Positions 64 to 13,805 are shown, counted from the first letter of the stretch. The stretch is 25,107 nt of DNA from Anaerohalosphaeraceae bacterium (GCA_050309605.1 JBNRMN010000085.1:1-25107), one strand, 5' to 3'. Numbers and translations are program-made. The notes: generated by a model from the letters alone, not told the origin.

Positions 64-1908
64 ATGCAAAAAACAGACACAGGCCCTCCCGTATTAATCC
101 AGTTTCCGACCGCTCAGGTGCTGGCCAGCCAGCGACTGCCCGCCCTCGAAATCGTCGCCTACACAGGCGGGTTTATGACGGTGCCGGGCTGGGGGCCGCT
201 GTGTATCGACCTGAAGGGCCTTGAGGCCGGACAGGTAGCGGTGCTGGCCGACCACGACGCCAAGCAGTCCGGCGTGGTCGGTCACGGCACTGCCTCGGTC
301 GAAGGCGGCAGGTTGGTGGTGCGAGGCCTTATGAGCGCCGACAGCGAAGCGGCGCGCGAGGTGCTCAAGGCCGCCAAGAACGGTTTTCCCTGGCAAGCGT
401 CCGTTGGGGTCGAGGTTCTGGATTCTGATCGCCTGCGCCCGGGACAGGCGATTGACTTGAACGGCCGCCATCTGGTTTGTCCGGATGGTGGTGCCGTTCG
501 GGTTACGCGCGGCAAGCTGCGCGAGGTCAGCATCACGGCGCTGGGCTGTGACGATGCGACCGCTGTACAGATTACTGCAATGAAAGTTCAAGGAGACAAT
601 GTTATGGAACAGACAGTAGAAACACCGGAAGTCAAAACCGACGACCTGCAGGCCGAGTGCAAGCGGGTTGCTAATATTCGCAACCTGTGCGGCGACCGCT
701 ATCCGGAGATTCAGGCCAAAGCCATCGATAGCGGCTGGGACGAAAACCGTACCGAACTGGAAATCCTGCGGGCCTCGCGCCCTGCGGCTCCGGGCGTGTT
801 TATCCGGGCGACGCATACGCCCAACAGCAACGTCCTCGAAGCGGCGCTGCTGATGCGGATGGGTCGGTCGGAGTTGGCCGAGAAAAATCTCGGTGCGATG
901 GCCTTGGAGCAGGCCGACCGGATGGGGGTCACCAACCTCATCGATGTTTGCCGGGCGGCCCTGTACGCCGACGGTCAGCCGATTCCCAACAACCGGATGG
1001 AACTGGTCAAGGCGGCCTTGAGTACCTACTCGTTGCCGGTGGCGCTGGGCAATGTGGCCAACAAGGTGCTGCTGGACGCCTACGCCGAGACGCCTGCGAC
1101 ATGGCGGACGTTCTGTGCAGTACGCAGCGTCAGCGACTTTAAGACCAACACGGTCATTCGCCCGACGTTTACCGGCCAGCTTGAGGAGATTGCCAAAGGC
1201 GGCGAGTTCAAACACGGTAGCGTGGACGAGGCGATGGTGCAGTATGCCATCGACACGTTCGGCAAAATGTTGAGCATCGACCGTCGCGACATCATCAACG
1301 ACGATTTGAGCCTGTTTGAGGACACGGCCGCCTCGCTGGGCCGAGCGGCGATGCGTCGGGTCAGCGATTTGGTCTATCACGTGCTGCTGGCCAACGCCGA
1401 CGACTTTTTCTCGCTGGACAATAACAACCTGCTGACCGGCGGACCGAGCGTCTTGAGCATCGACGCCTTGAGCGAGGCGATTGCACTGCTCCGCACCCAG
1501 CGGGATAAGGAAGGCAATGACCTTGACCTCAAGCCTTCGGTGCTGCTGGTCAGCCCGGAACTGGAAAGCACGGCCCGGGCGCTGCTGGAAAGCGAGTATA
1601 TTCAGGCACAGGTCGAAGGTCCGACGGGCAATTCGCTCCGCAAAGCCGTCCGGCTTGAGGTCGAGCCGCGGTTGAGCAACGATGTCAAGTTCCCGGCGAC
1701 CGCCTCGAAAAAGCAGTGGTTCCTGTTTGCCTCGCCGAGCAACATGCCACAAATCGTCGCCTTCCTCAACGGCCGTCAGTCGCCGACGACGGAGTTTTTC
1801 GGTCTGGACCACGACGTCAACCGCCTGGCCGTCGCCTGGCGTGTCTATCACGACTTCGGTACGGCGATGTGCGACCCGCGTGCTGCCGTTCGCAGCGACG
1901 GCGAATAA
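64..1908 (+). CDS. Phage prohead protease-major capsid protein fusion (Mu-like gpT-type / HK97-fold capsid domain, Planctomycete phage type)
   Basis: N-terminal protease-like motifs AYTGG, DHD, GFPWQASVG and LREVS. C-terminal capsid motifs VANKVLL, SVSDFK, GEFKHG, TFGKMLSIDRRDIINDDL, AFLNGRQSP and YHDFG. AGGAG RBS upstream of ATG 64. Confidence 0.88.
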   Translation: MQKTDTGPPVLIQFPTAQVLASQRLPALEIVAYTGGFMTVPGWGPLCIDLKGLEAGQVAVLADHDAKQSGVVGHGTASVEGGRLVVRGLMSADSEAAREVLKAAKNGFPWQASVGVEVLDSDRLRPGQAIDLNGRHLVCPDGGAVRVTRGKLREVSITALGCDDATAVQITAMKVQGDNVMEQTVETPEVKTDDLQAECKRVANIRNLCGDRYPEIQAKAIDSGWDENRTELEILRASRPAAPGVFIRATHTPNSNVLEAALLMRMGRSELAEKNLGAMALEQADRMGVTNLIDVCRAALYADGQPIPNNRMELVKAALSTYSLPVALGNVANKVLLDAYAETPATWRTFCAVRSVSDFKTNTVIRPTFTGQLEEIAKGGEFKHGSVDEAMVQYAIDTFGKMLSIDRRDIINDDLSLFEDTAASLGRAAMRRVSDLVYHVLLANADDFFSLDNNNLLTGGPSVLSIDALSEAIALLRTQRDKEGNDLDLKPSVLLVSPELESTARALLESEYIQAQVEGPTGNSLRKAVRLEVEPRLSNDVKFPATASKKQWFLFASPSNMPQIVAFLNGRQSPTTEFFGLDHDVNRLAVAWRVYHDFGTAMCDPRAAVRSDGE

Positions 1909-1935
1909 GTGTCTGATGGGGGTACGTTATCCCTT

Positions 1936-1990
1936 GGATGGCGGGGGTTTTTGTCCTTTACCCCGCCATCCCATTTGTTTAATTTTATTT
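1936..1990 (+). terminator. Probable intrinsic terminator or hairpin after the capsid gene
   Basis: GGATGGCGGGG (1936-1946) and CCCCGCCATCC (1961-1971) form an 11-bp perfect stem, followed by T-rich sequence. Confidence 0.6.
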
Positions 1991-2005
1991 TCACGGGAGG
2001 CGTGT

Positions 2006-2161
2006 ATGGTCACCACAGAATGTCCCACAGCGAAAATCGGCAAGTACCGCATCAATGTCCAACCGTCCGCAGAAGAGCCGCCACAGGCCAACCAGCGCGT
2101 CGAGGCGTTGGCCCAGTGGCTGCTGGCCCAGTGGACCAAAGAGCAGATTGAGAGGAATTAG
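2006..2161 (+). CDS. Small hypothetical protein (51 aa, MVTTECPTAKIGKYRINVQ...), coupled to the helicase gene
   Basis: GGGAGG RBS at 1995-2000, ATG at 2006. Its stop TAG abuts the ATG at 2162. It is the C-terminal part of track ORF 1682..2161. Confidence 0.6.
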   Translation: MVTTECPTAKIGKYRINVQPSAEEPPQANQRVEALAQWLLAQWTKEQIERN

Positions 2162-3859
2162 ATGGCAGCGCCCAAGCTCCTTAGCAGCGACGGGATGCTC
2201 TGGCCGTGGCCGACCGATTATGACGGCCGCTATATTTGCCTGTCGGCCGAGCGGATGTATCGCAGTGGCTTTTTGAAATCGGCCCATGCCGCGCAGCATC
2301 TCATCATCGACAATGATAACCCCAAAGACGACATCCACCGACGGCTCAAGCTCAACTGGGCATGGGAGCAGCGGCGTCTGTGTCGGGATGCGTTCAACAA
2401 TAAAAAACTTCGGCGACTGGAAATCGACGCCTACCATACCGACCAGCCTGCGCGGTTGAACCACTATCGCAGCCAAAGCAGCCATCCGGTGCGTCTGGCG
2501 TTCCGGCTGGCCTATTGGCGGGGTCGGGTCCACGCGCTCGAATATATCAAGCAGTCGTACTTCGATGCGGGATTTCCCGAGCACAGCGGCCATCGGAAAT
2601 GGGGCTATTTCCACGAGAGCATGGTCATCCCGTGGGCCAGGAAGGTCGCCGACTGGGCCAACAATCCGCTGGACGGAAAACTCTACCTGCCGCCTGACCT
2701 GATACACCAAGCCCGGCAGATTGCCGAACGTGAGCGGAAATGGAAACCGCCTGCGCCAGTGGCCAAACCGAAGCCAGCGGCGATGTCGGCAGCGGTCGCA
2801 GCGCCCAAAACCATCACGCCCGCACCGCTGCCGGCGTCACCTGCCGAGATTATCACCATCTCGCTGGCTGACGTCGAGGGCAAGGAGATACAGTGGTTCT
2901 GGCCCAACCGCATCCCGGCCGGAATGCTGACGCTCTTGGTGGGCAATCCCGGGGTGGGTAAATCGTTTCTGACGATGTACATCTGCGCGATAGTCTCGAC
3001 GGGTCGCGACTGGCCGGATGACAAAAACACGCTCGCCCCCGGCTCGGTGCTCTTGTTCAGCGATGAAGAGAGCTTGGAATATGCCATCAAGCCGCGGCTG
3101 CAGTCACACGGGGCCGATTGCTCTAAAATCTTTGCCGTCCCGCACATCCGATGCGCTGACGGTCATCCCGAGCCATTCACCATCGACGAGCATATTCAGC
3201 TGCTGCGTGAAAAGCTCCAGAAGATGCCCGATTGCCGGGTCATCATCTTTGACCCGATTACGGCGTATCTGGGGGCCGTCAACGCCAACAACAACGCCGA
3301 GGTGCGGGGCGCACTGGTCGGCCTGCAGGGCTTGGCGCAGGAGCGGAACGTGACCATTCTGGGCATCAACCATTTTTCCAAAAAAGCCGAGCTGGATGCG
3401 ATTCACCGGATTCTGGGGTCGACGGGATTTGTGGCGGCCGCACGCGCGGTCTGGGCGGTGATTCAGGAAAAGCCGGACGAACACAATCCCGACCCCGACC
3501 CGCCTCGCCTGCTCATCCCGGTCAAGAGCAACTACAGCATCGCACCGACGACGCTGCAGTTTCAGATTATCAATAAACAGGTGGTCTTTGACAAATCGTC
3601 ACAGCGGGTGGACATCGACTCGATTCTGCAGCAGACCAAAAAGAAAGGCGGCCGGCAGTCCAACAAGAAAGATGCCATCGCCGATTGGCTCAACGAGCGA
3701 GTCGGCACCGAACCCGTGCTGGCCGATGAACTGCAGGTCGAGGCGGAAAGCAAAGGGCTGACGTGGAGTTATGTCCAGAAGGTGGCAAACGAGATAGGGA
3801 TTGTCAAAACCAAATCGGCCGAGCATGGCGGGAAATCATTGTGGGCGTGCGGTGAATGA
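2162..3859 (+). CDS. AAA_25/RepA-like (RecA-fold SF4-type) replicative helicase with unrecognised N-terminal domain
   Basis: Walker A GNPGVGKS, Walker B VIIFDP, ILGINHFSKK, GSTGFVAAAR and KSN motifs. Pro/Ala-rich linker around aa 195-230. Short helical C-terminal domain. Confidence 0.82.
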   Translation: MAAPKLLSSDGMLWPWPTDYDGRYICLSAERMYRSGFLKSAHAAQHLIIDNDNPKDDIHRRLKLNWAWEQRRLCRDAFNNKKLRRLEIDAYHTDQPARLNHYRSQSSHPVRLAFRLAYWRGRVHALEYIKQSYFDAGFPEHSGHRKWGYFHESMVIPWARKVADWANNPLDGKLYLPPDLIHQARQIAERERKWKPPAPVAKPKPAAMSAAVAAPKTITPAPLPASPAEIITISLADVEGKEIQWFWPNRIPAGMLTLLVGNPGVGKSFLTMYICAIVSTGRDWPDDKNTLAPGSVLLFSDEESLEYAIKPRLQSHGADCSKIFAVPHIRCADGHPEPFTIDEHIQLLREKLQKMPDCRVIIFDPITAYLGAVNANNNAEVRGALVGLQGLAQERNVTILGINHFSKKAELDAIHRILGSTGFVAAARAVWAVIQEKPDEHNPDPDPPRLLIPVKSNYSIAPTTLQFQIINKQVVFDKSSQRVDIDSILQQTKKKGGRQSNKKDAIADWLNERVGTEPVLADELQVEAESKGLTWSYVQKVANEIGIVKTKSAEHGGKSLWACGE

Positions 3860-3885
3860 GCAGGATATACTAAGAGAGTATTATT

Positions 3886-3947
3886 ATAAGTTGTATAAGT
3901 AGGATAAGTAGAAGATCCTCAACTTATCCTACTTATCCAAGATATCC
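3886..3947. repeat. Iteron-like 9-bp repeats arranged as an inverted repeat; putative replication origin
   Basis: ATAAGTTGT-ATAAGTAGG-ATAAGTAGA (3886-3912) with opposing copies on the other strand. Perfect 15-bp IR ATAAGTAGGATAAGT (3895-3909) / ACTTATCCTACTTAT (3922-3936). AT-rich, directly after the helicase gene. Confidence 0.65.
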
Positions 3948-4001
3948 GACTCATACACTTACATACATCCTGATTAATTCGCAAAAGACGACGGCGATTA
4001 T

Positions 4002-4052
4002 GGTTCCTTCCGGGTAAAACAGGCAGGAGACTCCGCCGGGAACAATCACCAT
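4002..4052 (+). other. Candidate cos-like packaging signal
   Basis: GGTTCCTTCCGG (4002-4013) resembles the lambda cosQ region GGGTCCTTTCCGG and is followed by the GC-rich CTCCGCCGGGAAC. Intergenic, downstream of the replication module. Confidence 0.35.
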
Positions 4053-4107
4053 CCCAGAAAGAGTTAATTTTGGGCGGGGCATTTTTGCCGTAACGCGCAG
4101 GGGCGCT

Positions 4108-4287
4108 ATGTGGACACGAAGCTCATTACTCCAATTGGCCTGGCAGTGCTATGGCGACCATCGCGGCTGCTACCGCATGCGCTGCGCCCGCTGCGGGACG
4201 CGCTTTTTCGCATCGCGGCCCAACGCCCGCTATTGCCGCAACGCCTGTCGGCAATGGGCGTACCGTCAGCGGCGAAAATTGCCATAA
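4108..4287 (+). CDS. 59-aa zinc-finger microprotein (CxxC...YCxxxCR; CGNR-like)
   Basis: Hand translation: MWTRSSLLQLAWQCYGDHRGCYRMRCARCGTRFFASRPNARYCRNACRQWAYRQRRKLP*. Below the ORF-track size cut-off. Confidence 0.65.
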   Translation: MWTRSSLLQLAWQCYGDHRGCYRMRCARCGTRFFASRPNARYCRNACRQWAYRQRRKLP

Positions 4288-4405
4288 AAATAGTGCATAT
4301 TTATCAATAATTCCGGCCTAATACGCTTGGCTTCTGGTGGGGTTTATGGCCCTATAGGGACGTTATTAAAGACAAAAAAACGCCACTATTCAGGAGACAA
4401 AACAA

Positions 4406-4894
4406 ATGGAACTGACGGACGAAATTATCGACATGACCTACAAATTCGCACACACCTACCTGCGGCGCATCGGACGCACCGACATCGACCACAACGACCT
4501 TGCCCACGACGCGATGGTCAAGATTGCAAAGGCATCCGAGGTGGAGCCCCGGTTTCTGCGGCACCGCGTCTGGTTGGATATCAAAAGCGTGTTTTTTGAT
4601 TTTTACACCAACGCGACCACCCGCAAACACAACGTGCTGCTGGACGCGGTTCACGCCGAGTTCGATATGGAAACATTCGACCCGGATACGGTAACCGCCA
4701 AAGATGAATTTATCCGGGCACTGAAGATTGTATTTCGGGCGCAACCGACCCAATACGAAATTCTCGTCCTGCTTTTGAGTGGAAAGACCATCAAGGAGAT
4801 TGCGCAAATGCGCGGCACCACCACGAACGCGGTAGATGAATTGAAACAGAAAGCCCGAAAAGAAATCGCAGCGATCCTTGGCATCGCCGCATAG
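4406..4894 (+). CDS. ECF sigma-70-like / LuxR-type HTH regulator
   Basis: Region-2-like DHNDLAHDAMVKI and region-4 HTH EILVLLLSGKTIKEIAQMRGTTTNAVDELKQKARKEI. CAGGAG RBS at 4391. Confidence 0.7.
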   Translation: MELTDEIIDMTYKFAHTYLRRIGRTDIDHNDLAHDAMVKIAKASEVEPRFLRHRVWLDIKSVFFDFYTNATTRKHNVLLDAVHAEFDMETFDPDTVTAKDEFIRALKIVFRAQPTQYEILVLLLSGKTIKEIAQMRGTTTNAVDELKQKARKEIAAILGIAA

Positions 4895-4911
4895 ACAGAA
4901 AGGAATTCACC

Positions 4912-6699
4912 ATGGCATCCAAAAAACACATCAAGGCGGTCGGCTATGCCCGACGCAGCACCGACCTGCAGGAGCGGTCGATTCCCGACCAGAAGGCGTA
5001 CATCGAAAAATGGGCCCAGCAGAATGGCTACCGCATCCTCCGCTGGTACGTCGATGACGCCATCAGCGGCACCAGCACCAAGGGACGGATGGCGTTTGAG
5101 CGGATGATTGAGACCGCCGAGAACGGCCGGGATTTCGATACCATCCTCTGCTATGACATCAGCCGTTTTTCACGGGGCGGCACCAACGAGACGGGGTACT
5201 ATTTGCATCGGCTTGAGAAAGTAGGTGTCAACGCCATCTTCCCTGCCGACGGGATTCCTGACGGCGACGAGGGCGAACTCTTGCAAGGCGTCAAATCCTG
5301 GCAAGCCAAACAATACACGGTCAAATTGTCGCGGGATGTGATTCGGGGGTACATTTCGACGGTCACCATTCGACACAGTGCGGTGGGCGGCATTGCGCCC
5401 TATGGGTATGACAAGCAGCACCAGACCGCCAACGGTCAGATACTGCGGACGTTCCGCTGGATGGCCGATGGTCGCAAACAGGAATTCGGACCCGACGGCA
5501 AGCTGGTACGCATCTTGGAAAAGAGCGAATTTGTCAAGAAGGCCAAAAGCGATATTGTCCGGCTGGTGCCCAGCGATCCGGAGCGGGTCAAAACCGTCCA
5601 GCGGATTTTCAGCCTTTATCTGTCTGGTCGTGGAGCTGCCCATATCGCTTCTATTCTCAATCGGGATGGCATTCCGAGCTATACCGGAGTCAAGTGGGTC
5701 AGTCGCCAAATTCGAGGGGTCTTGGACAATCCCGTCTACAAAGGCGCATTGGTCTGGAACCGACGCACACTGGGGCGCTTCAATGGGGTTGACGGCGATG
5801 GCAATCTTCGTCCGAAGCGTAATTTTCTGGCGGCCAATAATCCGCAAGAAGACTGGTATCTGGTCGAGAATGTTCACGAACCGCTGGTCTCGCCCGATGA
5901 CTTTGAAAAAGCCCAGCAGGAAAAGAAAAATCGCTGCGATATGGGTGGCCGTGCCAAATCCACAGGCCGCGCCTTGTTGTCGGGATTGATTGTCTGTTCC
6001 CATTGCAACCAATCGTTTCATAAGACATACGTGGAGTGTAAATCCGGGGGTGTACCAACGCGATACTATTACTATGCCGATGCGGGGTATAAGCGGGGTG
6101 GTAAATTCCTCTGCAAGCAGACGAACGTCCCAATGGAACCACTGAACGCCTGGGTGCTGCATCACGTCAAACGCATCCTCTTGGGCGACCACAAGACCGT
6201 TGAGGAGGCGGTCGCCGCATTTATCAAAAAACTCCGGTTGGGCAAAGAGACGGCCGACGATACGGCCAACATCCAAAAAGAACTGGACGCGGTCAACCGC
6301 CGCATCAAGGCGACGCTGGCAATGCTGGCCGATCCGAGTTTTGAGGGACTGGATGAGATAAAAGCCACCCTGTCCGAATTGAAACTGCGTCGCGACCGAC
6401 TGCAGAAAAAGAATAATACCCCCAAACCCGCTGTCGCCACCTTCCGGGAATCCGATTTACGGGATTGGGCAACGGAACATATCGCCGCCATCGACCGCCT
6501 CATCGCACACCCCACCGCCACCGTCGAGGATAGAAAACTCGTCCACGCCTTTATCCACCGCATTGAAATCGACCCCTACGCCAAACAGGGAACACTTTAC
6601 CTTCACAAAGATGTGTTTGAAATCTTCAAAAACAATTTTTGCAGTTGGGGGAGTATGCAGGATTACCGCGGCGCGCTCAAGATGAAAGGCGAAGCATAA
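4912..6699 (+). CDS. Large serine recombinase (resolvase catalytic domain + recombinase domain + Zn ribbon/coiled coil)
   Basis: AVGYARRST with catalytic Ser, DDAISG, DISRFSR, PYGY, LDNPVYKG, HEPLVSPDDFEKAQ, LLSGLIVCSHC and a coiled-coil segment. Confidence 0.93.
   Translation: MASKKHIKAVGYARRSTDLQERSIPDQKAYIEKWAQQNGYRILRWYVDDAISGTSTKGRMAFERMIETAENGRDFDTILCYDISRFSRGGTNETGYYLHRLEKVGVNAIFPADGIPDGDEGELLQGVKSWQAKQYTVKLSRDVIRGYISTVTIRHSAVGGIAPYGYDKQHQTANGQILRTFRWMADGRKQEFGPDGKLVRILEKSEFVKKAKSDIVRLVPSDPERVKTVQRIFSLYLSGRGAAHIASILNRDGIPSYTGVKWVSRQIRGVLDNPVYKGALVWNRRTLGRFNGVDGDGNLRPKRNFLAANNPQEDWYLVENVHEPLVSPDDFEKAQQEKKNRCDMGGRAKSTGRALLSGLIVCSHCNQSFHKTYVECKSGGVPTRYYYYADAGYKRGGKFLCKQTNVPMEPLNAWVLHHVKRILLGDHKTVEEAVAAFIKKLRLGKETADDTANIQKELDAVNRRIKATLAMLADPSFEGLDEIKATLSELKLRRDRLQKKNNTPKPAVATFRESDLRDWATEHIAAIDRLIAHPTATVEDRKLVHAFIHRIEIDPYAKQGTLYLHKDVFEIFKNNFCSWGSMQDYRGALKMKGEA
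6655..6699 (+). pseudogene. 3' remnant of a prophage major capsid gene fused to the LSR C-terminus; putative attR junction near 6645-6660
   Basis: MQDYRGALKMKGE aligns ungapped with this window's capsid end MCDPRAAVRSDGE (6/13 identical plus V/L and R/K). It is followed, after a TA moron, by DUF2190, the gene that normally follows the capsid gene. Confidence 0.7.
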
Positions 6700-6712
6700 A
6701 CAGCCGGATGGG

Positions 6713-6979
6713 TCATTCGTAATGTGACCACATCCGCAGCACTTTGACAATACGTTCTTCGGTTAAGACCTGATAGACCAAGCGATGCTGAATGTTGATC
6801 CTGCGGGAGTACAGCCCCGTCAAATTGCCAAGCAGTTTTTCGTATGGCGGATAGGACGAAAAGGGGTCTTTTTCAATAAGTGCCAAAAGTTTTCTCACTT
6901 TCGGTGCTAATCCGGCAGCGGCGATTTTATTGGCATCTTTGACAGCGGCTTTGGTCAGGATGACTTCGTATCGGGCCAT
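6713..6979 (-). CDS. yoeB: Txe/YoeB family mRNA interferase toxin
   Basis: PPYEKLLGNLTGLYSRRINIQHRLVYQV...MWSHYE. Start at ATG 6979 (MARYEV), overlapping the antitoxin end. Confidence 0.92.
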   Translation of the reverse strand: MARYEVILTKAAVKDANKIAAAGLAPKVRKLLALIEKDPFSSYPPYEKLLGNLTGLYSRRINIQHRLVYQVLTEERIVKVLRMWSHYE

Positions 6980-7221
6980 GCAAACTCCGAAAGCGGGGTG
7001 CATTCTTCAGGTGATGCCTGACGGCCTTCAAGCAAGCTCTGGGTCATGCCCGGAATCGATTGAAGGTAAAGAGTCTCCTGAATGGCGGCGTAGTCTTCCT
7101 CTGAGATCAGGATACCTGCCCCGTTCTTGCTGGTAATGCAGATCGGCTCGTGCGACTCCTGAACCTGGCTAAGGAGCTTATAGAGCTGTTTTCGAGCGTT
7201 TGTGGCGGTAATGGTCGTCAT
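6955..7221 (-). CDS. yefM: Phd/YefM family antitoxin
   Basis: TATNARKQLYKLLSQVQESHEPICITSKNGAGILISEEDYAAIQETLYLQSIPGM; lies upstream of yoeB. Confidence 0.92.
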   Translation of the reverse strand: MTTITATNARKQLYKLLSQVQESHEPICITSKNGAGILISEEDYAAIQETLYLQSIPGMTQSLLEGRQASPEECTPLSEFAWPDTKSS

Positions 7222-7742: not shown

Positions 7743-8096
7743 ATGAGCAATTTACTGAACAACGGCCTGGACTGGCTGGAGCAGAAGCTCCTGGGTTTCT
7801 GCTCCAGTCCGGTCGCGTATCGGCGAAACAGCCAAACCGTAACTGTTAATGCCGTCTTCGGCAAAACCGACTATGAGGTGGACAATGAGTCGGGTCTGCG
7901 TGTGGGCAGTTTTGTGTGGGATTTTCTGATGGATGCAGAGGCTTTGGCCATGACGCCGGAGATTGGTGACATCGTGGTGGTTAACAACAAACAATTTGAA
8001 GTGATGGCTCTGTCCGGTCAGGGCTGCTGGCGCTGGACGGGGCCGAACCAAAAAACCTATCGTATCCACACTCAGGAGATTGGCAGTGACCTGTAA
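7743..8096 (+). CDS. Putative phage head-tail joining/head-closure protein
   Basis: MSNLLNNGLDWLEQK...VAYRR...FGKTDYEV...WDFL...PEIGDIV...WRW...YRIHT; lies after DUF2190. Start taken at ATG 7743. Confidence 0.6.
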   Translation: MSNLLNNGLDWLEQKLLGFCSSPVAYRRNSQTVTVNAVFGKTDYEVDNESGLRVGSFVWDFLMDAEALAMTPEIGDIVVVNNKQFEVMALSGQGCWRWTGPNQKTYRIHTQEIGSDL

Positions 8097-8322
8097 AGAA
8101 CAATATGAAAACGTCTGCAAGGACGAGTTTGCCGGGCTGCATGATAAGCTGGACAAGATGGACGAAGCCATCCGCGGCAACGGCAAGCCGGGGATTCAGG
8201 TCCGCCTGGACCGGCTGGAGCAGGAACGGCTCAGCCGCAGCAAGGTGGCGTGGTTTGTTATCGGCTGTATCACGACGTTGGCCGGTTCGATTGCCACATC
8301 GTGGATTGTGAGGACGCTATGA
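8086..8322 (+). CDS. Small phage membrane protein (coiled coil + one C-terminal TM helix)
   Basis: LHDKLDKMDEAIRGNGKPGIQVRLDRLEQ then hydrophobic VAWFVIGCITTLAGSIATSWIV. AGGAG at 8074-8078 favours the GTG start at 8086. Confidence 0.7.
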   Translation: MTCKEQYENVCKDEFAGLHDKLDKMDEAIRGNGKPGIQVRLDRLEQERLSRSKVAWFVIGCITTLAGSIATSWIVRTL

Positions 8323-8741
8323 AAATCGCCATTGATATTGCTGATGCGGTCGCTGCCGAGCTGGCGAACTTGCCTTTGACCATTCATCGCCGTGTCCTGC
8401 CGGAATACGAGTTGGCCGAACTGAAGAGCCTGACGGTTACCGTGGTGCCCAAGTCGGTCGAGATCGCCTATGTCACACGGGATGCGACCGGTTATGAGGT
8501 GGCGATAGACATCGGGATTCAGCAAAAGATCGGTAAGGACACCGATGCGGAGGTCACACGGCTAAGCGACGTTGTCAGTGAGATCGTATCGTTCCTGAAC
8601 CGTCGTTCGTTGCCGACGCTCAAGGCGCGGTTTAAGGCCCTCGTCAACGAGCCGGTCTATGCCCCGGAAATGCTCCGTGAAAAACGGCTGTTTTTGTCCG
8701 TGGTCACCGTAACCTATCTTTGTCAGGAGGTGGTACGATAA
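8319..8741 (+). CDS. Putative phage tail terminator / neck protein; last codons altered by the IS110 insertion
   Basis: ATGA overlap with the previous gene. IADAVAAEL, RRVLPEYEL, IDIGIQQK, EPVYAPE and FLSVVTVTY. The terminal VVR* is read from IS sequence. Confidence 0.6.
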   Translation: MKIAIDIADAVAAELANLPLTIHRRVLPEYELAELKSLTVTVVPKSVEIAYVTRDATGYEVAIDIGIQQKIGKDTDAEVTRLSDVVSEIVSFLNRRSLPTLKARFKALVNEPVYAPEMLREKRLFLSVVTVTYLCQEVVR

Positions 8742-8745
8742 ATCC

Positions 8746-9015
8746 TGAATGAGGTTGAGCCGATATTTTTTCTTTCTTTTTTCCCCGGTTTGGGGTGAGG
8801 GGAAAAAAGCGAAAAAATATCTTCTTGACAGCATTCGTTGGCGTTTTAACTTCGATTTTACGAATCGGAGTAGAATAGGTTTCAGGCTGCATGATTCGTA
8901 TGGGGCATCGACCTCGAACAGGAGAATATTCAGACCTGTAACCGAACCGGCCACAATAAGGCATTGCGACCTTGTATAGGAGAATGGTGGACGCCGACAG
9001 TGAAGTCTACTCCAG
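8746..9015 (+). ncRNA. Candidate IS110 bridge RNA
   Basis: Structured left end: hairpin 8762-8821, enclosing stem 8867-8874/9006-9013, and two internal arms (8878-8943, 8948-8996). The arms contain CAGGAG (equal to the left target flank) and ATAGGAG (equal to the right-end donor sequence). RNA ends are approximate. Confidence 0.6.
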
Positions 9016-9050
9016 ACAATGGAAACCATGAATGTTTAGGAGAACGCACA

Positions 9051-10064
9051 ATGAGTTATCTTGGAGTAGACTTGCACACGAACAGTTTTACGGTGTGCCA
9101 TCGGACCAAGCAGGGAAAGCAGCGTATTGCAACGTATGCCATCGACCGGATGGATCGGTTTGGCAAGACCTTGCGGAAACGGGACGACGTGGCCGTGGAA
9201 GCGACCGGCAATACGGCGTGGTTTGTCGAGCAGATTCGGTCGTCTGTCAGAAAAGTGATTGTGGTGGATCCGAACCAGTTTAAGGTGATTCGTCAGTCGG
9301 TAAAAAAGACGGACAAACACGACGCCAGGGCATTGGCGTTATTTTTGAGCAAAGGCATGTTGCCTGAGGCACGTATGAAAGAAAAAAAGAACACCCAGTT
9401 GCATTCATTGGCCGCCACGCGGGACAAGCTGGTCAAACAGCGAACGGCGTTGGCAAACAAGGTGCATAATGTCCTGAACAGTTACGGCCTGAAATGGAAA
9501 AAAGAGACACTGACAACAGAAAAGGGTCTCAAGAGTATTTTGTCCTTTGACTGGGACACAATTGTACGGGTCGAGCTGGAGGTGCTGACCGATCAGATTC
9601 GGTCGCTGACCCGAAGCATCAAGCGTTTGGATGCGGACATTGCTGAACACGGCAAGGTGCTGAAAGGCCATGAAAACCTCAGCAGTATCAAGGGTATCGG
9701 CGAAAAGTCGGCCACCGTGCTGCTCAGTGTCATCGGCAATGTGAAGGATTTTGCCAATGAAGACAAACTGGCGTCGTATTTCGGGATTGTGCCGCGCGTC
9801 AAGGATTCCAATGAGATCGTACGGCATGGGCGGATCACCAAACACGGCTCGACCCTGGCTCGCACGACATTGGTGCAATGCACCTTGTCGGCCAAACGGT
9901 ACAGTCCCTATTTGAGGCAGTATTATGAACGGATCAAGCGAACACGCGGCAGCGGCAAAGCGATCATTGCCACCGCACGGAAACTGCTTGGGATCATCTA
10001 CAAAACCCTGACACATGACTGGGTGTTTGAGGACTTCCCAAACTTTGTGATCGCAACACGTTAG
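9051..10064 (+). CDS. IS110 family transposase/recombinase (DEDD RuvC-like + Transposase_20)
   Basis: YLGVDLH, VAVEATG, KKTDKHDA, SIKGIG, YFGIVPRVKDS, GRITKHG and AIIATARKL. AGGAG RBS before ATG 9051. Confidence 0.95.
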   Translation: MSYLGVDLHTNSFTVCHRTKQGKQRIATYAIDRMDRFGKTLRKRDDVAVEATGNTAWFVEQIRSSVRKVIVVDPNQFKVIRQSVKKTDKHDARALALFLSKGMLPEARMKEKKNTQLHSLAATRDKLVKQRTALANKVHNVLNSYGLKWKKETLTTEKGLKSILSFDWDTIVRVELEVLTDQIRSLTRSIKRLDADIAEHGKVLKGHENLSSIKGIGEKSATVLLSVIGNVKDFANEDKLASYFGIVPRVKDSNEIVRHGRITKHGSTLARTTLVQCTLSAKRYSPYLRQYYERIKRTRGSGKAIIATARKLLGIIYKTLTHDWVFEDFPNFVIATR

Positions 10065-10115
10065 CGTAAAAATAATTGAAAATTGGAGTAGACTTTTATC
10101 ATAGGAGACCACCAT

Positions 10116-13100
10116 ATGTTCCATCTGACTTTACGAGTGCCTTGGCATGACCGCCAATGGGATGGTTGTGTTTGTGACAAACCGTTACAGAACTCCTTTT
10201 GCGTTGCGCTTGACCGTATCCGTGTGGAGCGAGACGAAATAGCGGAAGACAAAATCAAGGGGCAGCACTTTCGTGATTTGAGTCAGCATGAACTGCCTGC
10301 CTGTAAAGCCGAGTCCGGATACTTCATGAGTCCACACTCATGGTTACGCGAGTTTAAACATCCCTATAGCCAAAACAAAAAAGCTCAGGCAACCCACGGC
10401 AATTTGGAGAAAACGAGCATTCCTGTCCCTGAGTATTCAACATTTGCTGTTCCCTTTGCATGGATGCTGCGAAAAAATCAGAAGCAGCTTGAGGCGGGCC
10501 TCCCCAACCCACTGCCACCCGACGAGAAACCTCCCTTCGAGACTCCTTGGGTATTCGGGCGTTCCCGACAGGAGGCGATTTCTGATCTGATGTTCGGGCG
10601 GATCACGGATGATAAGTCACTGGTGTTCTTTTACACCAAGGAAGGACATCCTCTTGGCGACAATCTACCACGCCTAGTAATCGGCGTTGGGCGAGTGTTG
10701 AGAGTTGGGAAATTGTTGTACTATGAATCTTCGGGTAAGACCACCTACCCTCTGTGGGACCGCATCATCCGCCACTCAATCCGAACTGATGGCCATGACG
10801 GCTTTCTTCTGCCGTATCACGACTATCTTAAACTTACGGGAGACCCCGAGGAAGACGCTCGCAGACGTGAACTCCTTCTGGAGATAGCTGTAGCCGTCGA
10901 TTGGGGACACATGAAGGAGTTCTCGCACGCGGCAGAATTGGCTCCGCCTGGCACCGCTCTTTCTACGCTGACTCGATGCCTCGCTGCAGTGCGTCTTATC
11001 CGAAAGCACGGAATTGCGGAAGGCCCCTGGGATCGGCATGAGGAATGGCTTAATCAGCAAATCGCGGATGTGTGGCAAGATCGCGGTGCATTTCCGGGTA
11101 CTGGGTCCGCCCTTGAAGCACTAGGAATGAGGTTGGGCACTTCTCTGTACTTCGAATTGCTGGCCATGGGGGCCGTGCAACCGAGCGATAACCCGTGGAC
11201 CGTGGTAGATGCAATCTTACGCGGCAAAAAAAATCCTCCCCAGACAGCGTATTCCGGTGACATCAAAGCCATTCGCTCGACATGGGAAGGGCTATCCGCC
11301 GAACGACGAGCTCTACTGGAACTCCTTTCTCGTTTCGACTTGACTCCTGGGCAGGCACAGCGGTGGTTCGACCCAAACAAAAGAGCTAATGCTACTCATG
11401 CTCAGATAACGGACAGGGAAATACTGGAAAACCCGTATCGTACAGTGGAGGCAGACCTGGGTGATCATGAAAACGTGCCAGTAAGCATAGGCATGGTCGA
11501 CCGCGGCCTCATGCCAGATAGTTCAATTGCGGCAAAGCACCCAGTACCTGCACCTTCATCGGTTGATTCTCCATTAGATAAGCGACGTGTTCGAGCTGCC
11601 TTAGTCTCTATCCTTAAATCGGCAGCCAATGAGGGGGACGCCCTCATGGGCATTAGCGAAATTTTAGAGCGGATGCCGAAAATCGACTTGTCTCAGCCCT
11701 GCAATGTTGGAATGGATTGGTTAAATGCGAATAAAGGTTTTCTCTCAGAGGTCGTAGAGACGGTCGATATCACTGTCAAATCCGGAAAGACAGAGAAACT
11801 AATTCCATCATTACAACTCACTGAATATCGCAAACAAGAAGATAGGCTGCGTAACGTCCTTCATGCCCGCGCGGAAAGAAAAACGGTCACAGTGAAAACT
11901 AGTTGGGCGGCTTTACTCAAAAAGGCCATTCAAGATGCTGGAGGGGCATACGACCCAAAGAATCCCCGTCACACCGCTGCACTTAAAGAGCAGACAGACG
12001 CACTGGCCTGCATCATTGATAGAAAGCTGACCGTCCTGACCGGAAAAGCCGGTACAGGCAAGACATCTGTGCTGGGTGCATTGTTGCTTTGCGATGATAT
12101 TATCAAGGACGGCATTCTGTTATTAGCCCCGACGGGTAAAGCACGTGTGCGACTTGGTCGCGCTACAAACGCTGAAGCAATGACGGTTGCCCAGTTCTTG
12201 AACAGTCTCGGACGGTATGATGGAGTCAGGCAAAAACCTCTGCTTGTCGGCAAGGACAAGTACAGGAAGGAGAAAACAGTTGTTATTGATGAAGCATCGA
12301 TGCTGACAATGGATACCCTCTTGGCCGTATTGGAAGCATTAGACTTGGCACATGTCCAGCGACTGATCCTTGTTGGCGATCCCAATCAATTACCACCCAT
12401 TGGGGTCGGAAGACCCTTTGCGGATTTAGTTGCTAGTTTTGAAAGTGCATTGGCGTCAAATGACCCTTTAATTCAGAATCGCGGATTAGCAATGGCTCGT
12501 CTATCTGTTGAAGTGCGAGCTGTGGCTGGTGCACCTTCTGGCACGCTTCGCCTGGCATCGTGGTTCACACGCGAGCCACAAATGGTGGATGCAGACCGCA
12601 TTCTAAGCGACATAGAAATGAATGGGGCTTTTAATGATTTAGAACTCTGTTTTTGGAAAACTCCCGAGGAACTTCGCTCAAGATTCATGGAGCAATTCAA
12701 GAAGCAATTTGGGATAAATAATGAGAAGGACGTTGATAATTTTAACCTCGCTTTGGGTTTCAACCCTGAAGGATGGATGCCATTTGATGCCCCAGAAGGT
12801 GCAGAGAACTTCCAGATACTCTCTCCTGTGCGTATGCACCCATACGGTGTGCGTGAGATCAACAGATGGGTACAGCGATCCTTTCGAATGGATAAGCTGC
12901 AAAAGGCGAGAGCATTTCGGGGAACAAGTCTGGGTGATGAGGAAATTGTCGTTAGCGATAAAGTTATTCAGCTCGATAACGGAACCAGATATGCTTATGA
13001 CGGAAATGGCCAATTGGAAGTATATCTTGCCAACGGAGAAATCGGAGTTGTGTGCCCTGGCAAGGCAGGATGGGTAAATGTGGTTTTCAGCGGAAGAAAG

Positions 13101-13805
13101 AATATTAGGGTCGGATACAGCAAGCGAGATTTTCCACAAGGAAGTGGACCATTGGAACTTGCATACGCGCTTACTGTTCATAAGGCGCAGGGCAGTGAAT
13201 TCAAGAAGGTGTTTGTTGTTATCCCCAGAAAATGTAGACCCTTGTCCAGAGAACTGCTTTATACTGCACTGACAAGGTCCCGCGAGAAGCTCGTTCTATT
13301 AATCGAAGGGAATGATGGCTCTTGTTTGTATGATTTTTCTCGACCGGAAAAATCTGAAACTGCAAGAAGAAACACCAACCTGTTTACGAGTGCTGTCCGT
13401 GATCAAGCAGAGACAGTCCCTTACGTTGAACATCTCATACACCGTACCGAGAAGGGGCATATGGTTCGCAGCAAATCGGAACTTGTCATTGCGAATATTC
13501 TATTCCACATAGAAGGCCTGCGTGACTACGAATATGAGCGAGTTTACGAGGGAATCACTGTACCCGGGAAGATGCGTCCCGATTTTTCTTGGGTCACTCC
13601 CGCAGGTGACCTACTGATCTGGGAACATTTAGGGATGTTGGGACGCGACGACTATCGAATAGCTTGGGAATGGAAAAAGGATTGGTATGAGAAGAATTGT
13701 TTTCAAGTCGGTAAGAATCTGTTTACAACACAAGAGGATAATGGTGGCAGACTTAATTCTCAAGAAATCATATCTGTTGCAAGGATAATAGAAAAAATTC
13801 TTTAA
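10116..13805 (+). CDS. Large RecD-like SF1B helicase with long N-terminal extension and C-terminal PD-(D/E)XK-like nuclease domain
   Basis: Helicase motifs GKAGTGKT, LLAPTGKA, VIDEASM, LVGDPNQLPPIG, LANGEIG, AYALTVHKAQGSEF and LLYTALTR. C-terminal VRSKSELVIAN...YEYE...PDF...IWEHLGM. Confidence 0.88.
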   Translation: MFHLTLRVPWHDRQWDGCVCDKPLQNSFCVALDRIRVERDEIAEDKIKGQHFRDLSQHELPACKAESGYFMSPHSWLREFKHPYSQNKKAQATHGNLEKTSIPVPEYSTFAVPFAWMLRKNQKQLEAGLPNPLPPDEKPPFETPWVFGRSRQEAISDLMFGRITDDKSLVFFYTKEGHPLGDNLPRLVIGVGRVLRVGKLLYYESSGKTTYPLWDRIIRHSIRTDGHDGFLLPYHDYLKLTGDPEEDARRRELLLEIAVAVDWGHMKEFSHAAELAPPGTALSTLTRCLAAVRLIRKHGIAEGPWDRHEEWLNQQIADVWQDRGAFPGTGSALEALGMRLGTSLYFELLAMGAVQPSDNPWTVVDAILRGKKNPPQTAYSGDIKAIRSTWEGLSAERRALLELLSRFDLTPGQAQRWFDPNKRANATHAQITDREILENPYRTVEADLGDHENVPVSIGMVDRGLMPDSSIAAKHPVPAPSSVDSPLDKRRVRAALVSILKSAANEGDALMGISEILERMPKIDLSQPCNVGMDWLNANKGFLSEVVETVDITVKSGKTEKLIPSLQLTEYRKQEDRLRNVLHARAERKTVTVKTSWAALLKKAIQDAGGAYDPKNPRHTAALKEQTDALACIIDRKLTVLTGKAGTGKTSVLGALLLCDDIIKDGILLLAPTGKARVRLGRATNAEAMTVAQFLNSLGRYDGVRQKPLLVGKDKYRKEKTVVIDEASMLTMDTLLAVLEALDLAHVQRLILVGDPNQLPPIGVGRPFADLVASFESALASNDPLIQNRGLAMARLSVEVRAVAGAPSGTLRLASWFTREPQMVDADRILSDIEMNGAFNDLELCFWKTPEELRSRFMEQFKKQFGINNEKDVDNFNLALGFNPEGWMPFDAPEGAENFQILSPVRMHPYGVREINRWVQRSFRMDKLQKARAFRGTSLGDEEIVVSDKVIQLDNGTRYAYDGNGQLEVYLANGEIGVVCPGKAGWVNVVFSGRKNIRVGYSKRDFPQGSGPLELAYALTVHKAQGSEFKKVFVVIPRKCRPLSRELLYTALTRSREKLVLLIEGNDGSCLYDFSRPEKSETARRNTNLFTSAVRDQAETVPYVEHLIHRTEKGHMVRSKSELVIANILFHIEGLRDYEYERVYEGITVPGKMRPDFSWVTPAGDLLIWEHLGMLGRDDYRIAWEWKKDWYEKNCFQVGKNLFTTQEDNGGRLNSQEIISVARIIEKIL

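Follow-up and report, generated by a model that had tools for sequence, protein, structure and literature searches.

IS621, a member of the IS110 family of insertion sequences (IS), is organized as left end, recombinase gene and right end, carries CT at both boundaries and joins, at its left junction, the left target half to the right donor half (LT-RD). Its RNA loops consist of a left guide, a stem-loop and a right guide, where the left guide pairs with the bottom strand and reads as the top-strand left flank plus core, as far as the accessible parts of the three source papers describe it (PMC11208160, PMC11208158, PMC13626964). For IS900 and IS901 from Mycobacterium avium, likewise of the IS110 family, the accessible part of the source gives the target motif CATGNNNNNNTCTCCTT (PMC8141618). 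Bridge RNAs, junction promoters, handshake guides and the insertion of IS900/IS901 between the Shine-Dalgarno (SD) sequence and the start codon are already part of the published record. Here we describe an IS110-family element located in a 25,107-nucleotide stretch of DNA from an Anaerohalosphaeraceae bacterium (GCA_050309605.1, JBNRMN010000085.1:1-25107), the whole of which is called the window below. Sequence comparison indicates, with a rough probability of 0.85, that this is an intact bridge-RNA-guided IS belonging to a cross-phylum clade whose natural target is the SD sequence of host genes. One guide of the predicted bridge RNA would read the SD sequence, while a second guide would read the SD-like right end of the element itself.

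To the extent that the published text covers these features, the element shares with the IS621/IS110 group a DEDD/Tnp recombinase, a long left end and a short right end, an RNA with a 5′ stem-loop, a target loop and a donor loop, two guide strands around each hairpin, a 2-nt core at both junctions and a possible handshake dinucleotide after the 3′ guide. In common with IS900/IS901 are a consensus site composed of an SD sequence and a start codon, which lie about 6 nt apart in those elements, and the rarity of insertions inside genes. Unlike IS621, the target is a functional host signal and not a repeat of the repetitive extragenic palindromic (REP) kind, only one 7-nt guide covaries with the site, and the donor half mimics the target half.

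Bridge recombinases are under development as programmable insertion tools, and natural designs are relevant to this effort. The natural program of the element described here is a universal functional signal, the ribosome-binding site (RBS), apparently read by one short guide, and the donor end appears built to repair the signal it interrupts. A literature search covering texts and Supplementary file 5 of Durrant et al. (other supplements may bear on the question) returned nothing linking SD targeting to a bridge-RNA guide and no description of an SD-restoring right end, a co-directional orientation or a reversed guide order. By term search, no passage on RBS targeting was found in the seekRNA paper or the CazIS110-1 preprint, and the main text of Durrant et al. 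contains 'ribosom' twice and 'start codon' zero times, with no discussion of SD targeting seen.

Element ends and insertion at gene starts

The element occupies window positions 8730-10107 on the plus strand (1378 bp), with the right-hand AGGAG counted as its last five bases. Its main features and junctions are:

8723-8729, plus strand: TCAGGAG, left target half plus core, the original SD copy retained at the left junction
8730-9050, plus strand: non-coding left end of 321 nt, predicted to encode the bridge RNA
8734-8739, plus strand: TACGAT, -10 half of the predicted circle-only promoter, with TG at 8731-8732
9051-10064, plus strand: transposase/recombinase gene (337 amino acids, assigned by Pfam and NCBIfam), with its own RBS AGGAG at 9038-9042
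10089-10094, plus strand: TAGACT, -35 half of the predicted junction promoter
10100-10107, plus strand: right terminus CATAGGAG, left-donor half plus core, now the SD sequence of the helicase gene
10108-10118, plus strand: right target half, consisting of the spacer ACCACCAT and the downstream ATG
10116-13805, plus strand: downstream host gene encoding a helicase of 1229 amino acids with AAA_30, AAA_19 and UvrD_C_2 domains

The encoded protein matches the Pfam domains DEDD_Tnp_IS110 (PF01548, E 3e-14) and Transposase_20 (PF02371, E 5e-22) and scores 235.6 bits against the NCBIfam model NF033542, 'IS110 family RNA-guided transposase', for which the cut-off is 140. The right end is short (43 nt, 10065-10107), the left end long. 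At the left junction (8729/8730), reading ...TTTGTCAGGAG/GTGGTACGATAAA, the element starts with GTGGTACGAT directly after CAGGAG (8724-8729), a word that agrees with the element's own guide. At the right junction (10107/10108), reading ...GGAGTAGACTTTTATCATAGGAG/ACCACCATATG, the terminus CATAGGAG is followed by 8 nt and then by the helicase ATG, so that AGGAG lies at 10103-10107 and the start codon at 10116. Terminal inverted repeats are absent, the two ends GTGGTACGAT and CATAGGAG being unrelated. All junction, AGGAG and ATG sequences reported in the initial annotation are present in the window, as are the two unoccupied CAGGAGA words that it listed at 4391 and 8073, the former located 9 nt before an ATG at 4406. 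CAGGAGA occurs 6 times in the window compared with an expectation of 2.9 ± 1.45.

These boundaries recur in other genomes. A set of 60 relative genomes contains one full copy with 80% DNA identity, whose alignment spans the query 8730-10107 exactly (1-1378), along with many end fragments at contig ends, and the break falls at the identical base in each of the 12 right and 8 left ends. The left junction of these relatives reads (A)AGGAG/(G/A/T)TGGTACGATAAA, and their right end reads GGAGTAGAyTTTTAwCATAGGAG/, beyond which the DNA is unrelated. Scanning species genomes with the protein as guide yielded 80 loci falling into three sequence groups with transposase identities of 32-88%. All three groups have the terminus (C/T)ATAGGAG and start directly after an AGGAG-like flank word, and their left-end starts vary (GTGGTACGAT, ACGGTATGAA and GAATGATAAAA).

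Across the three groups, 83 distinct right flanks were analyzed, where a gene start was defined as an ATG or TTG opening an open reading frame (ORF) that spans at least 50 codons or is open-ended. A start codon follows AGGAG after 5-9 nt in 75 of the 83 flanks (73 ATG, 2 TTG). The spacer between SD sequence and start is 5 nt long in 9 flanks, 6 nt in 36, 7 nt in 17, 8 nt in 10 and 9 nt in 3, with a mode of 6 nt. The terminus (C/T)ATAGGAG is present in all 83 flanks except for one copy ending in ...GGAA, and all flanks examined have transposase and downstream gene pointing the same way. The proposal of the initial annotation that the element inserts into SD sites and rebuilds the RBS with its own right end is thus supported by gene starts in 75 of 83 flanks together with a constant terminus; different ends, or insertion without relation to RBS motifs, were not the pattern in the 83 flanks. 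For genome annotation, such elements account for a recurrent 1.3-1.4-kb insert located exactly between SD sequence and ATG in many phyla, and it should be kept in mind that the SD sequence preceding such genes belongs to the element.

A predicted bridge RNA in the left end

The 321-nt left end folds better than shuffled sequences (z = -4.8, single-sequence fold). An alignment of 8 left ends of planctomycete-type and related elements shows compensatory changes in 8 of 37 predicted pairs. The 12 left ends of the distant group share the two modules and have an outer stem and a 5′ stem-loop as well, with 17 of 43 pairs being compensatory. This covariation supports the view that the left end encodes a bridge RNA, for which the following parts are predicted:

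8762-8822, plus strand: long U/A-rich hairpin, possibly the 5′ stem-loop of the transcript, kept in the planctomycete subgroup and lacking in both other groups
8867-8874, plus strand: 5′ strand of the outer stem, GGAGTAGA, pairing with 9006-9013 and enclosing both binding loops
8878-8943, plus strand: first module, the putative target-binding loop, with compensatory stem pairs and the same architecture in the distant group
8878-8886 with 8935-8943, 8887-8901 and 8902-8915, plus strand: stem, 5′ loop segment and hairpin of the first module
8917-8924, plus strand: 3′ guide of the target loop, AACAGGAG
8925-8926, plus strand: AA, at the handshake-guide position
8951-8954, plus strand: CCAC, complementary to GTGG (8730-8733), with which the element begins, and forming the 5′ segment of the second module
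8958-8973, plus strand: hairpin of the second module, the putative donor-binding loop, with an AU to GC compensatory change
8976-8982, plus strand: AUAGGAG, donor-loop 3′ guide with the same sequence as the element's terminal 7 bases (10101-10107)
9006-9013, plus strand: 3′ strand of the outer stem, TCTACTCC

The outer stem varies in a compensatory manner, the paired variants being GGAGCAGA/TTTGCTCC, GGGGTAGA/TCTACCCC and AGAGTAAA/TTTACTCT. In both modules, the strand 3′ of the hairpin opens with G and continues with a word ending in AGGAG. For the first module, this word is ACAGGAG in the window element and AAAGGAG in most relatives. To compare guides with target flanks, 73 sites from 35 element variants were used and guides were shuffled among families 20,000 times. 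The 7-nt segment of the first loop, NNNGGAG, covaries with the left target flank (permutation p<=5e-5). Guide and flank carry the same base at position -6, counted back from the left junction, in 68 of 73 sites, at -7 in 53, at -8 in 29 and at -9 in 9. Summed over -8 to -5, 222 of 292 positions match, compared with 164 ± 11 for shuffled guides and a shuffle maximum of 210. Guide letters other than A at -7 to -5 are matched in 41 of 61 cases, while only 49 of 219 target letters are non-A.

Individual families follow the same pattern. The window element is alone among its close kin in having C at -6 of the guide, and both of its known sites, the one in the window and a second one on a metagenome contig (X5), also have C at -6. 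A GGGAG guide goes with a GGGAG site at locus L097, the guide UUUAGGAG with a TTAGGAG site at L045 and the guide GUGAAGGAG with a GAAGGAG site on a Tardibacter plasmid. The guide GAGAAGGAG of L057 matches at 9 of 9 positions, and in one genome the guide UACAGGAG is accompanied by ACAGGAG in 8 of 10 sites. Misses are found at -7 in L042 and L046, at -6 in L049 and overall in L058.

The donor side is more uniform. The donor guide reads ATAGGAG in all 60 rows compared, the same as the right terminus of the element, and because the donor guide AUAGGAG equals the element's own right end, the SD sequence is rebuilt upon insertion. The 5′ strand of the second module covaries with the element start, the corresponding words being CCA-TGG, CCG-CGG and CAUUC-GAATG. 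Further, the mid group and some others have, directly after AGGAG of the first module, the same dinucleotide with which the element starts (AC-AC, AU-AT, CU-CT), as would be expected of a handshake guide.

There is no Rfam model for the left end; the sole match at E<=1 within 8000-10800, to CRISPR-DR57 (20.1 bits, gathering threshold 39), is a chance one and falls on the hairpin at 8762-8822. The word GGAGTAGA occurs three times, in the outer stem at 8867, in codons 4-6 of the transposase at 9061 (G-V-D) and in the right end at 10086, where it overlaps the -35 element. Its sole complement, TCTACTCC at 9006, could engage the coding-region copy in place of the outer stem, and this alternative pairing could possibly act as a switch between bridge-RNA folding and transposase translation. 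The RBS of the transposase itself (9038-9053), consisting of AGGAG, 8 nt and ATG, is a site of the type targeted by the element. It is spelled TTTAGGAG as opposed to AACAGGAG for the guide, and the mismatch at -6/-7 may protect the element against itself.

Core, polarity and recognition of gene starts

The left and right AGGAG words can be told apart in some relatives. Left junctions reading AAAGAG (L055), GGGAG (L097) and also AAGAA were found, and the right ends of L055 and L097 are both AGGAG. Positions -4 and -5 thus come from the target at the left and from the donor at the right, which places the crossover 3′ of -4, so that the shared core is approximately AG and the remaining identity reflects mimicry of the target by the donor and not duplication. 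AGGAG itself, which the initial annotation had regarded as the shared core, is therefore too long. The presence of AGGAG at both window junctions could also be explained by an ordinary 5-bp target-site duplication, generated by staggered cuts and involving no RNA guide. Given that the right copy is constant (CATAGGAG, with 8 conserved bases in every element) while the left copy can differ, that the protein is an IS110 DEDD recombinase and that the internal guides covary with the flank, this explanation is almost certainly wrong. It is the likeness of donor and target that causes the RBS to be rebuilt, as a canonical IS110 insertion would leave only two SD bases before the gene.

The core is AG on the strand encoding the recombinase, the flank-identical guides are located 3′ of the loop hairpins and the complementary guides 5′ of them. 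Compared with the published text on IS621, in which the sense-strand core is CT and the flank-identical guides lie 5′, this amounts to the IS621 layout viewed from the complementary strand. When the opposite strand is read, the site becomes CAT-N5-9-CT/CCTTT, and guide order, CT core and handshake position are then canonical. The cassette of RNA and recombinase thus appears to be inverted relative to the polarity of the recombination site, which would place the element co-directional with the host gene. Guide order and core strand are also reversed relative to IS900, which, compared by its target motif and as far as its source goes, has the canonical polarity: in IS900 the site is CATG-N6-TCTCCTT and the transposase runs against the host gene, whereas the window clade uses AAGGAG-N5-9-ATG and its transposase runs with the host gene. 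A host-dependent ORF on the opposite strand (hed) is a further feature described for IS900. On sequence grounds, the reversed guide order and core strand would mark a variant of the IS110 group and not exclude the element from it. If the cassette is indeed inverted, the orientation of insertion relative to guide polarity would be an evolvable feature.

A member of the clade is also listed in Supplementary file 5 of Durrant et al., with the donor ...TTTTTATCATAGGAG/CTGGCATGATAAAGG in six rows and, paired with it, the three targets target_seq3607-3609. It has the same right terminus, the same type of left end, targets consisting of AAGGAG, an A-rich spacer and ATG, and AG at the core. Other target groups in the same file resemble gene starts on the opposite strand, for instance ...CAT(G)N5-6TCTCCTGTGT and ...TTCATAACTC... 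or ...TTCATATCT... with CAT adjacent to the center, and several IS110 lineages may home on start regions.

A mechanism can be proposed from these features. The 7-nt 3′ guide of the target module would read the left target flank plus core, while the 3′ guide of the donor module would read the right terminus and the 5′ strand would pair with the complementary first bases of the element. Crossover would take place at or next to the terminal AG, with recombination chemistry presumably as in IS621, and would give the product LT-AG/element...CATAGG-AG/RT, where LT and RT are the left and right target halves. The old SD sequence would stay at the left, and the SD-like terminus would take up the original distance of 5-9 nt (mode 6) to the start codon. 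Situated co-directionally in the 5′ leader, the element would be transcribed by host read-through, which would make bridge RNA and recombinase and continue into the SD-bearing downstream gene. The SD-like right end may have been kept because the downstream gene is spared. That such sites would do little damage and this gene would stay translatable is the adaptive reading put forward in the initial annotation.

The two ends would form a σ70-type promoter only in the circular form, with the -35 box in the right end and the -10 box in the left end separated by 17 nt. The circle-junction promoter proposed earlier, TAGACT-17 nt-TACGAT with TG two bases before the -10 box, is reproduced when the ends are joined in silico, and the same register, with a 17-nt spacer and the -10 box at base 5 or 7 of the left end, is found in 28 of 29 elements. 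Each group has its own hexamers: TAGACT/TACGAT with TG; TTGCAA, TTGAAA or TTGACA with TATGAA; and TTGACT/TAAAAA with TG. A scan for σ70-like promoters inside the integrated element gave none that passed, and no terminator was found between the transposase stop and the helicase start. The lack of an internal promoter and terminator would fit expression by host read-through, which is needed for IS621 excision according to the accessible text of PMC13626964.

Taken further, these properties would describe a cross-phylum clade in which the cassette is turned relative to the recombination site, with the CT core on the antisense strand, and in which one of the two target guides has been relaxed. Homing on SD sequences by a single 7-nt guide, a co-directional position in 5′ leaders, a host promoter borrowed for the read-through on which IS621 excision depends and a replacement SD sequence would then make for a 'polite' element with a donor site mimicking a gene start. 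We advance this extended reading tentatively and put it at somewhat less than an even chance. If single-guide, half-site reading is true, it would indicate the extent of relaxed target recognition in a working system and would bear on off-target rules.

A number of observations speak against guide-directed SD targeting or against parts of it, and they are gathered in this and the following three paragraphs. The host genome contains a single copy of the element, a second copy having been sought and not found, and as a consequence all statistics rest on relatives. In 8 of the 83 flanks, no long ORF begins at 5-9 nt: in five the ATG at 6-8 nt opens a short ORF, in two a second SD sequence precedes an ATG at 15-18 nt, and in one there is no start. 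In the window copy, the AA at the handshake position does not match GT at the start of the left end. The inverted polarity rests on published text for IS621 and IS900. An unoccupied orthologous site was not found among relatives, metagenome loci or contigs: homologues of the upstream gene in the 60 relatives precede other genes, with two ending at contig ends, the 5′ part of the helicase gene has no orthologue in the same 60 genomes, and the DNA upstream of helicase homologues in 19 metagenome loci is unrelated. In the assembled contigs of four runs, neither the circle junction nor an empty site was seen.

A further point concerns a Spirochaetia genome with 15 copies (L081-L095), where the left flank is TATAGGAG in 10 of 15 cases, spelled like the donor guide and right end. 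The target guide on this chromosome is UUUAGGAG, and only 3 left flanks have the spelling that goes with it, TTTAGGAG. The donor spelling may reflect recognition of targets by the donor loop, a 'half-match' recognition of the kind described in a published abstract, or re-use of formerly occupied sites. It also bears on the question of why the right end resembles an SD sequence. Instead of being kept for the benefit of the downstream gene, this likeness could be a mechanistic by-product of near-duplicate loops, if the recombinase, the handshake or half-match recognition works best when donor and target are similar. The prevalence of donor spelling in one genome would fit such a by-product, as would the observation that the two 3′ guides differ mainly at -6 (A/C versus U) in all groups, down to 32% protein identity. 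Likeness is not generally required, however, as the donor and target halves of IS621 are unrelated apart from the CT core in the accessible published text, and insertion at an AAAGAG or GGGAG site still leaves AGGAG as the right end. On balance, we regard a pure by-product as doubtful.

The other strand of the target loop, the 5′ strand, would be expected from the canonical scheme to read the right target half, but gives no sign of reading the site. Its agreement with its own sites does not exceed that with 304 random AGGAG gene starts of the host (9 sites, Fisher p = 0.44); the site in the window itself ranks at 0.987. Likewise, the 5′ strand separates start from non-start AGGAG by 0.15-0.5 matches, about the same as shuffled guides. 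These two results bear directly on the idea that the 5′ strand, with a conserved CAU, reads the spacer plus ATG, so that the bridge RNA would recognize SD sequence and start codon together. CAU indeed has an invariant position in the distant group, as does GCAU in the planctomycete group, the segment resembles an A-rich spacer followed by ATG when reverse-complemented, and one 4-copy family matches 5/6, 4/6, 2/6 and 5/7 spacer bases by eye. Considering also that the distance between SD sequence and ATG varies from 5 to 9 nt within one family and that the mid group has UAU, AAU or GAU in place of CAU, we judge joint recognition to be quite improbable.

It follows that the 7-nt guide alone does not explain the near-exclusive use of true gene starts, for which three candidates exist: selection after insertion, a structural or transcription-linked preference, and wobble-tolerant pairing of the G/U-rich strand. 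In its simplest form, selection would mean that the element recognizes only (A)AGGAG wherever it occurs, that intragenic insertions are lost and that the rebuilt RBS lets the survivors persist. The restriction of covariation to one 7-nt guide and the lack of a site-specific match for the other loop strand are in line with this, and so is the base right after AGGAG, which is A in 47 of 84 cases compared with 166 of 304 ordinary gene starts, that is, without any difference. Moreover, 67% of host AGGAG sites lie within long ORFs, where insertion would break a gene. In the host genome, 545 of 2616 AGGAG sites (20.8%) and 64 of 231 AAAGGAG sites (27.7%) qualify as starts, giving P(>=75/83) = 6e-42 at p=0.209. 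Once intragenic sites are removed, gene starts make up 57-63% of the remaining sites, and the observed 75 of 83 still exceeds this level (P = 1.8e-8 at p=0.632), the background being one genome with a crude ORF mask. In genomes with 15, 10 and 9 copies, an ATG follows after 5-8 nt in 15/15, 10/10 and 8/9 flanks, and no tolerated intragenic copy was seen. Based on these counts, later selection as the sole cause of the gene-start bias appears rather unlikely.

Copies in other genomes and the host neighborhood

The closest of the three groups (73-88% transposase identity) consists of metagenome-assembled genomes (MAGs) of Planctomycetota. The mid group (52-59%) includes Alphaproteobacteria, Nitrospira, Pirellulaceae, Acidobacteria, Saprospiraceae, Chloroflexia and a Paracaedibacteraceae MAG, while the distant group (32-37%) is found in Spirochaetia, Syntrophales, Desulfobacterales, Dysgonomonadaceae and a Gracilibacteria MAG. 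A copy from a cultured strain is located on plasmid pHSL4 of Tardibacter chloracetimidivorans (NZ_CP018225.1), where it is annotated as 'IS110 family transposase' with 54.6% protein identity. Its junctions read ...GAAGGAG/CTGGCATGAATG and ...CATCATAGGAG/ACAACCG-ATG, and its guide is the GUGAAGGAG mentioned above. The pHSL4 element differs from the window element in residing in a different host phylum and in lacking the long 5′ hairpin of the planctomycete subgroup. ISAtu7 (32.5% identity) has its ends within IS66-family elements.

Contigs of two other metagenome studies carry an element about 99% identical to that of the window, aligned over 8724-10107/10108 and followed by unrelated flanks. 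The X5 contig represents a second insertion of the same element, ...AAAACAGGAG/element/ATACTATT-ATG, and the X6 contig reads element/ATTGAAA-ATG. Runs X5, X6 and X7, from three other studies, show 12-14 differences over about 1.1-1.4 kb and do not contain the flanks of the window. These nearly identical copies suggest recent spread or a multi-host element. A joint of 8453 to 8645 encountered in contigs had 194 other letters between its two sides, one of which was 21 letters long, and was taken as unrelated. One metagenome helicase homologue (L125:100-150) is preceded by ...CACAGCATAGGAG-TATTCA-ATG, which resembles the right terminus of the IS and could be a relic of it or just an SD sequence.

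Upstream of the element and in the remainder of the window, the following features were identified:

8250-8741, plus strand: upstream host ORF, its last codons GTG GTA CGA TAA (8730-8741) lying inside the element
64-1908: capsid-type protein
2162-3859: AAA_25 protein
4912-6699: large serine recombinase
6713-7003, minus strand: YoeB/ParE-type toxin ORF

The upstream ORF crosses the left AGGAG and stops at a TAA within the element, which means that the insertion replaced its C-terminal tail. The upstream gene appears as two overlapping ORFs in different frames (8080-8322 and 8250-8741), possibly due to a frameshift or an unusual start. In all groups, the SD sequence of the left junction precedes a very short reading frame that soon reaches its stop codon within the element, namely GTG GTA CGA TAA in the window, ATG GTA CGA TAA in the sister subgroup, ACG GTA TGA in the mid group and ATG GCA TGA or ATG GTA TGA in other elements. 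Ribosomes coming from upstream would stop at once in this frame, and the same bases form the -10 box. The region at 64-7003, in the left third of the window, looks like an integrated phage-like or mobile island, and the IS and its helicase neighbor may belong to the same island.

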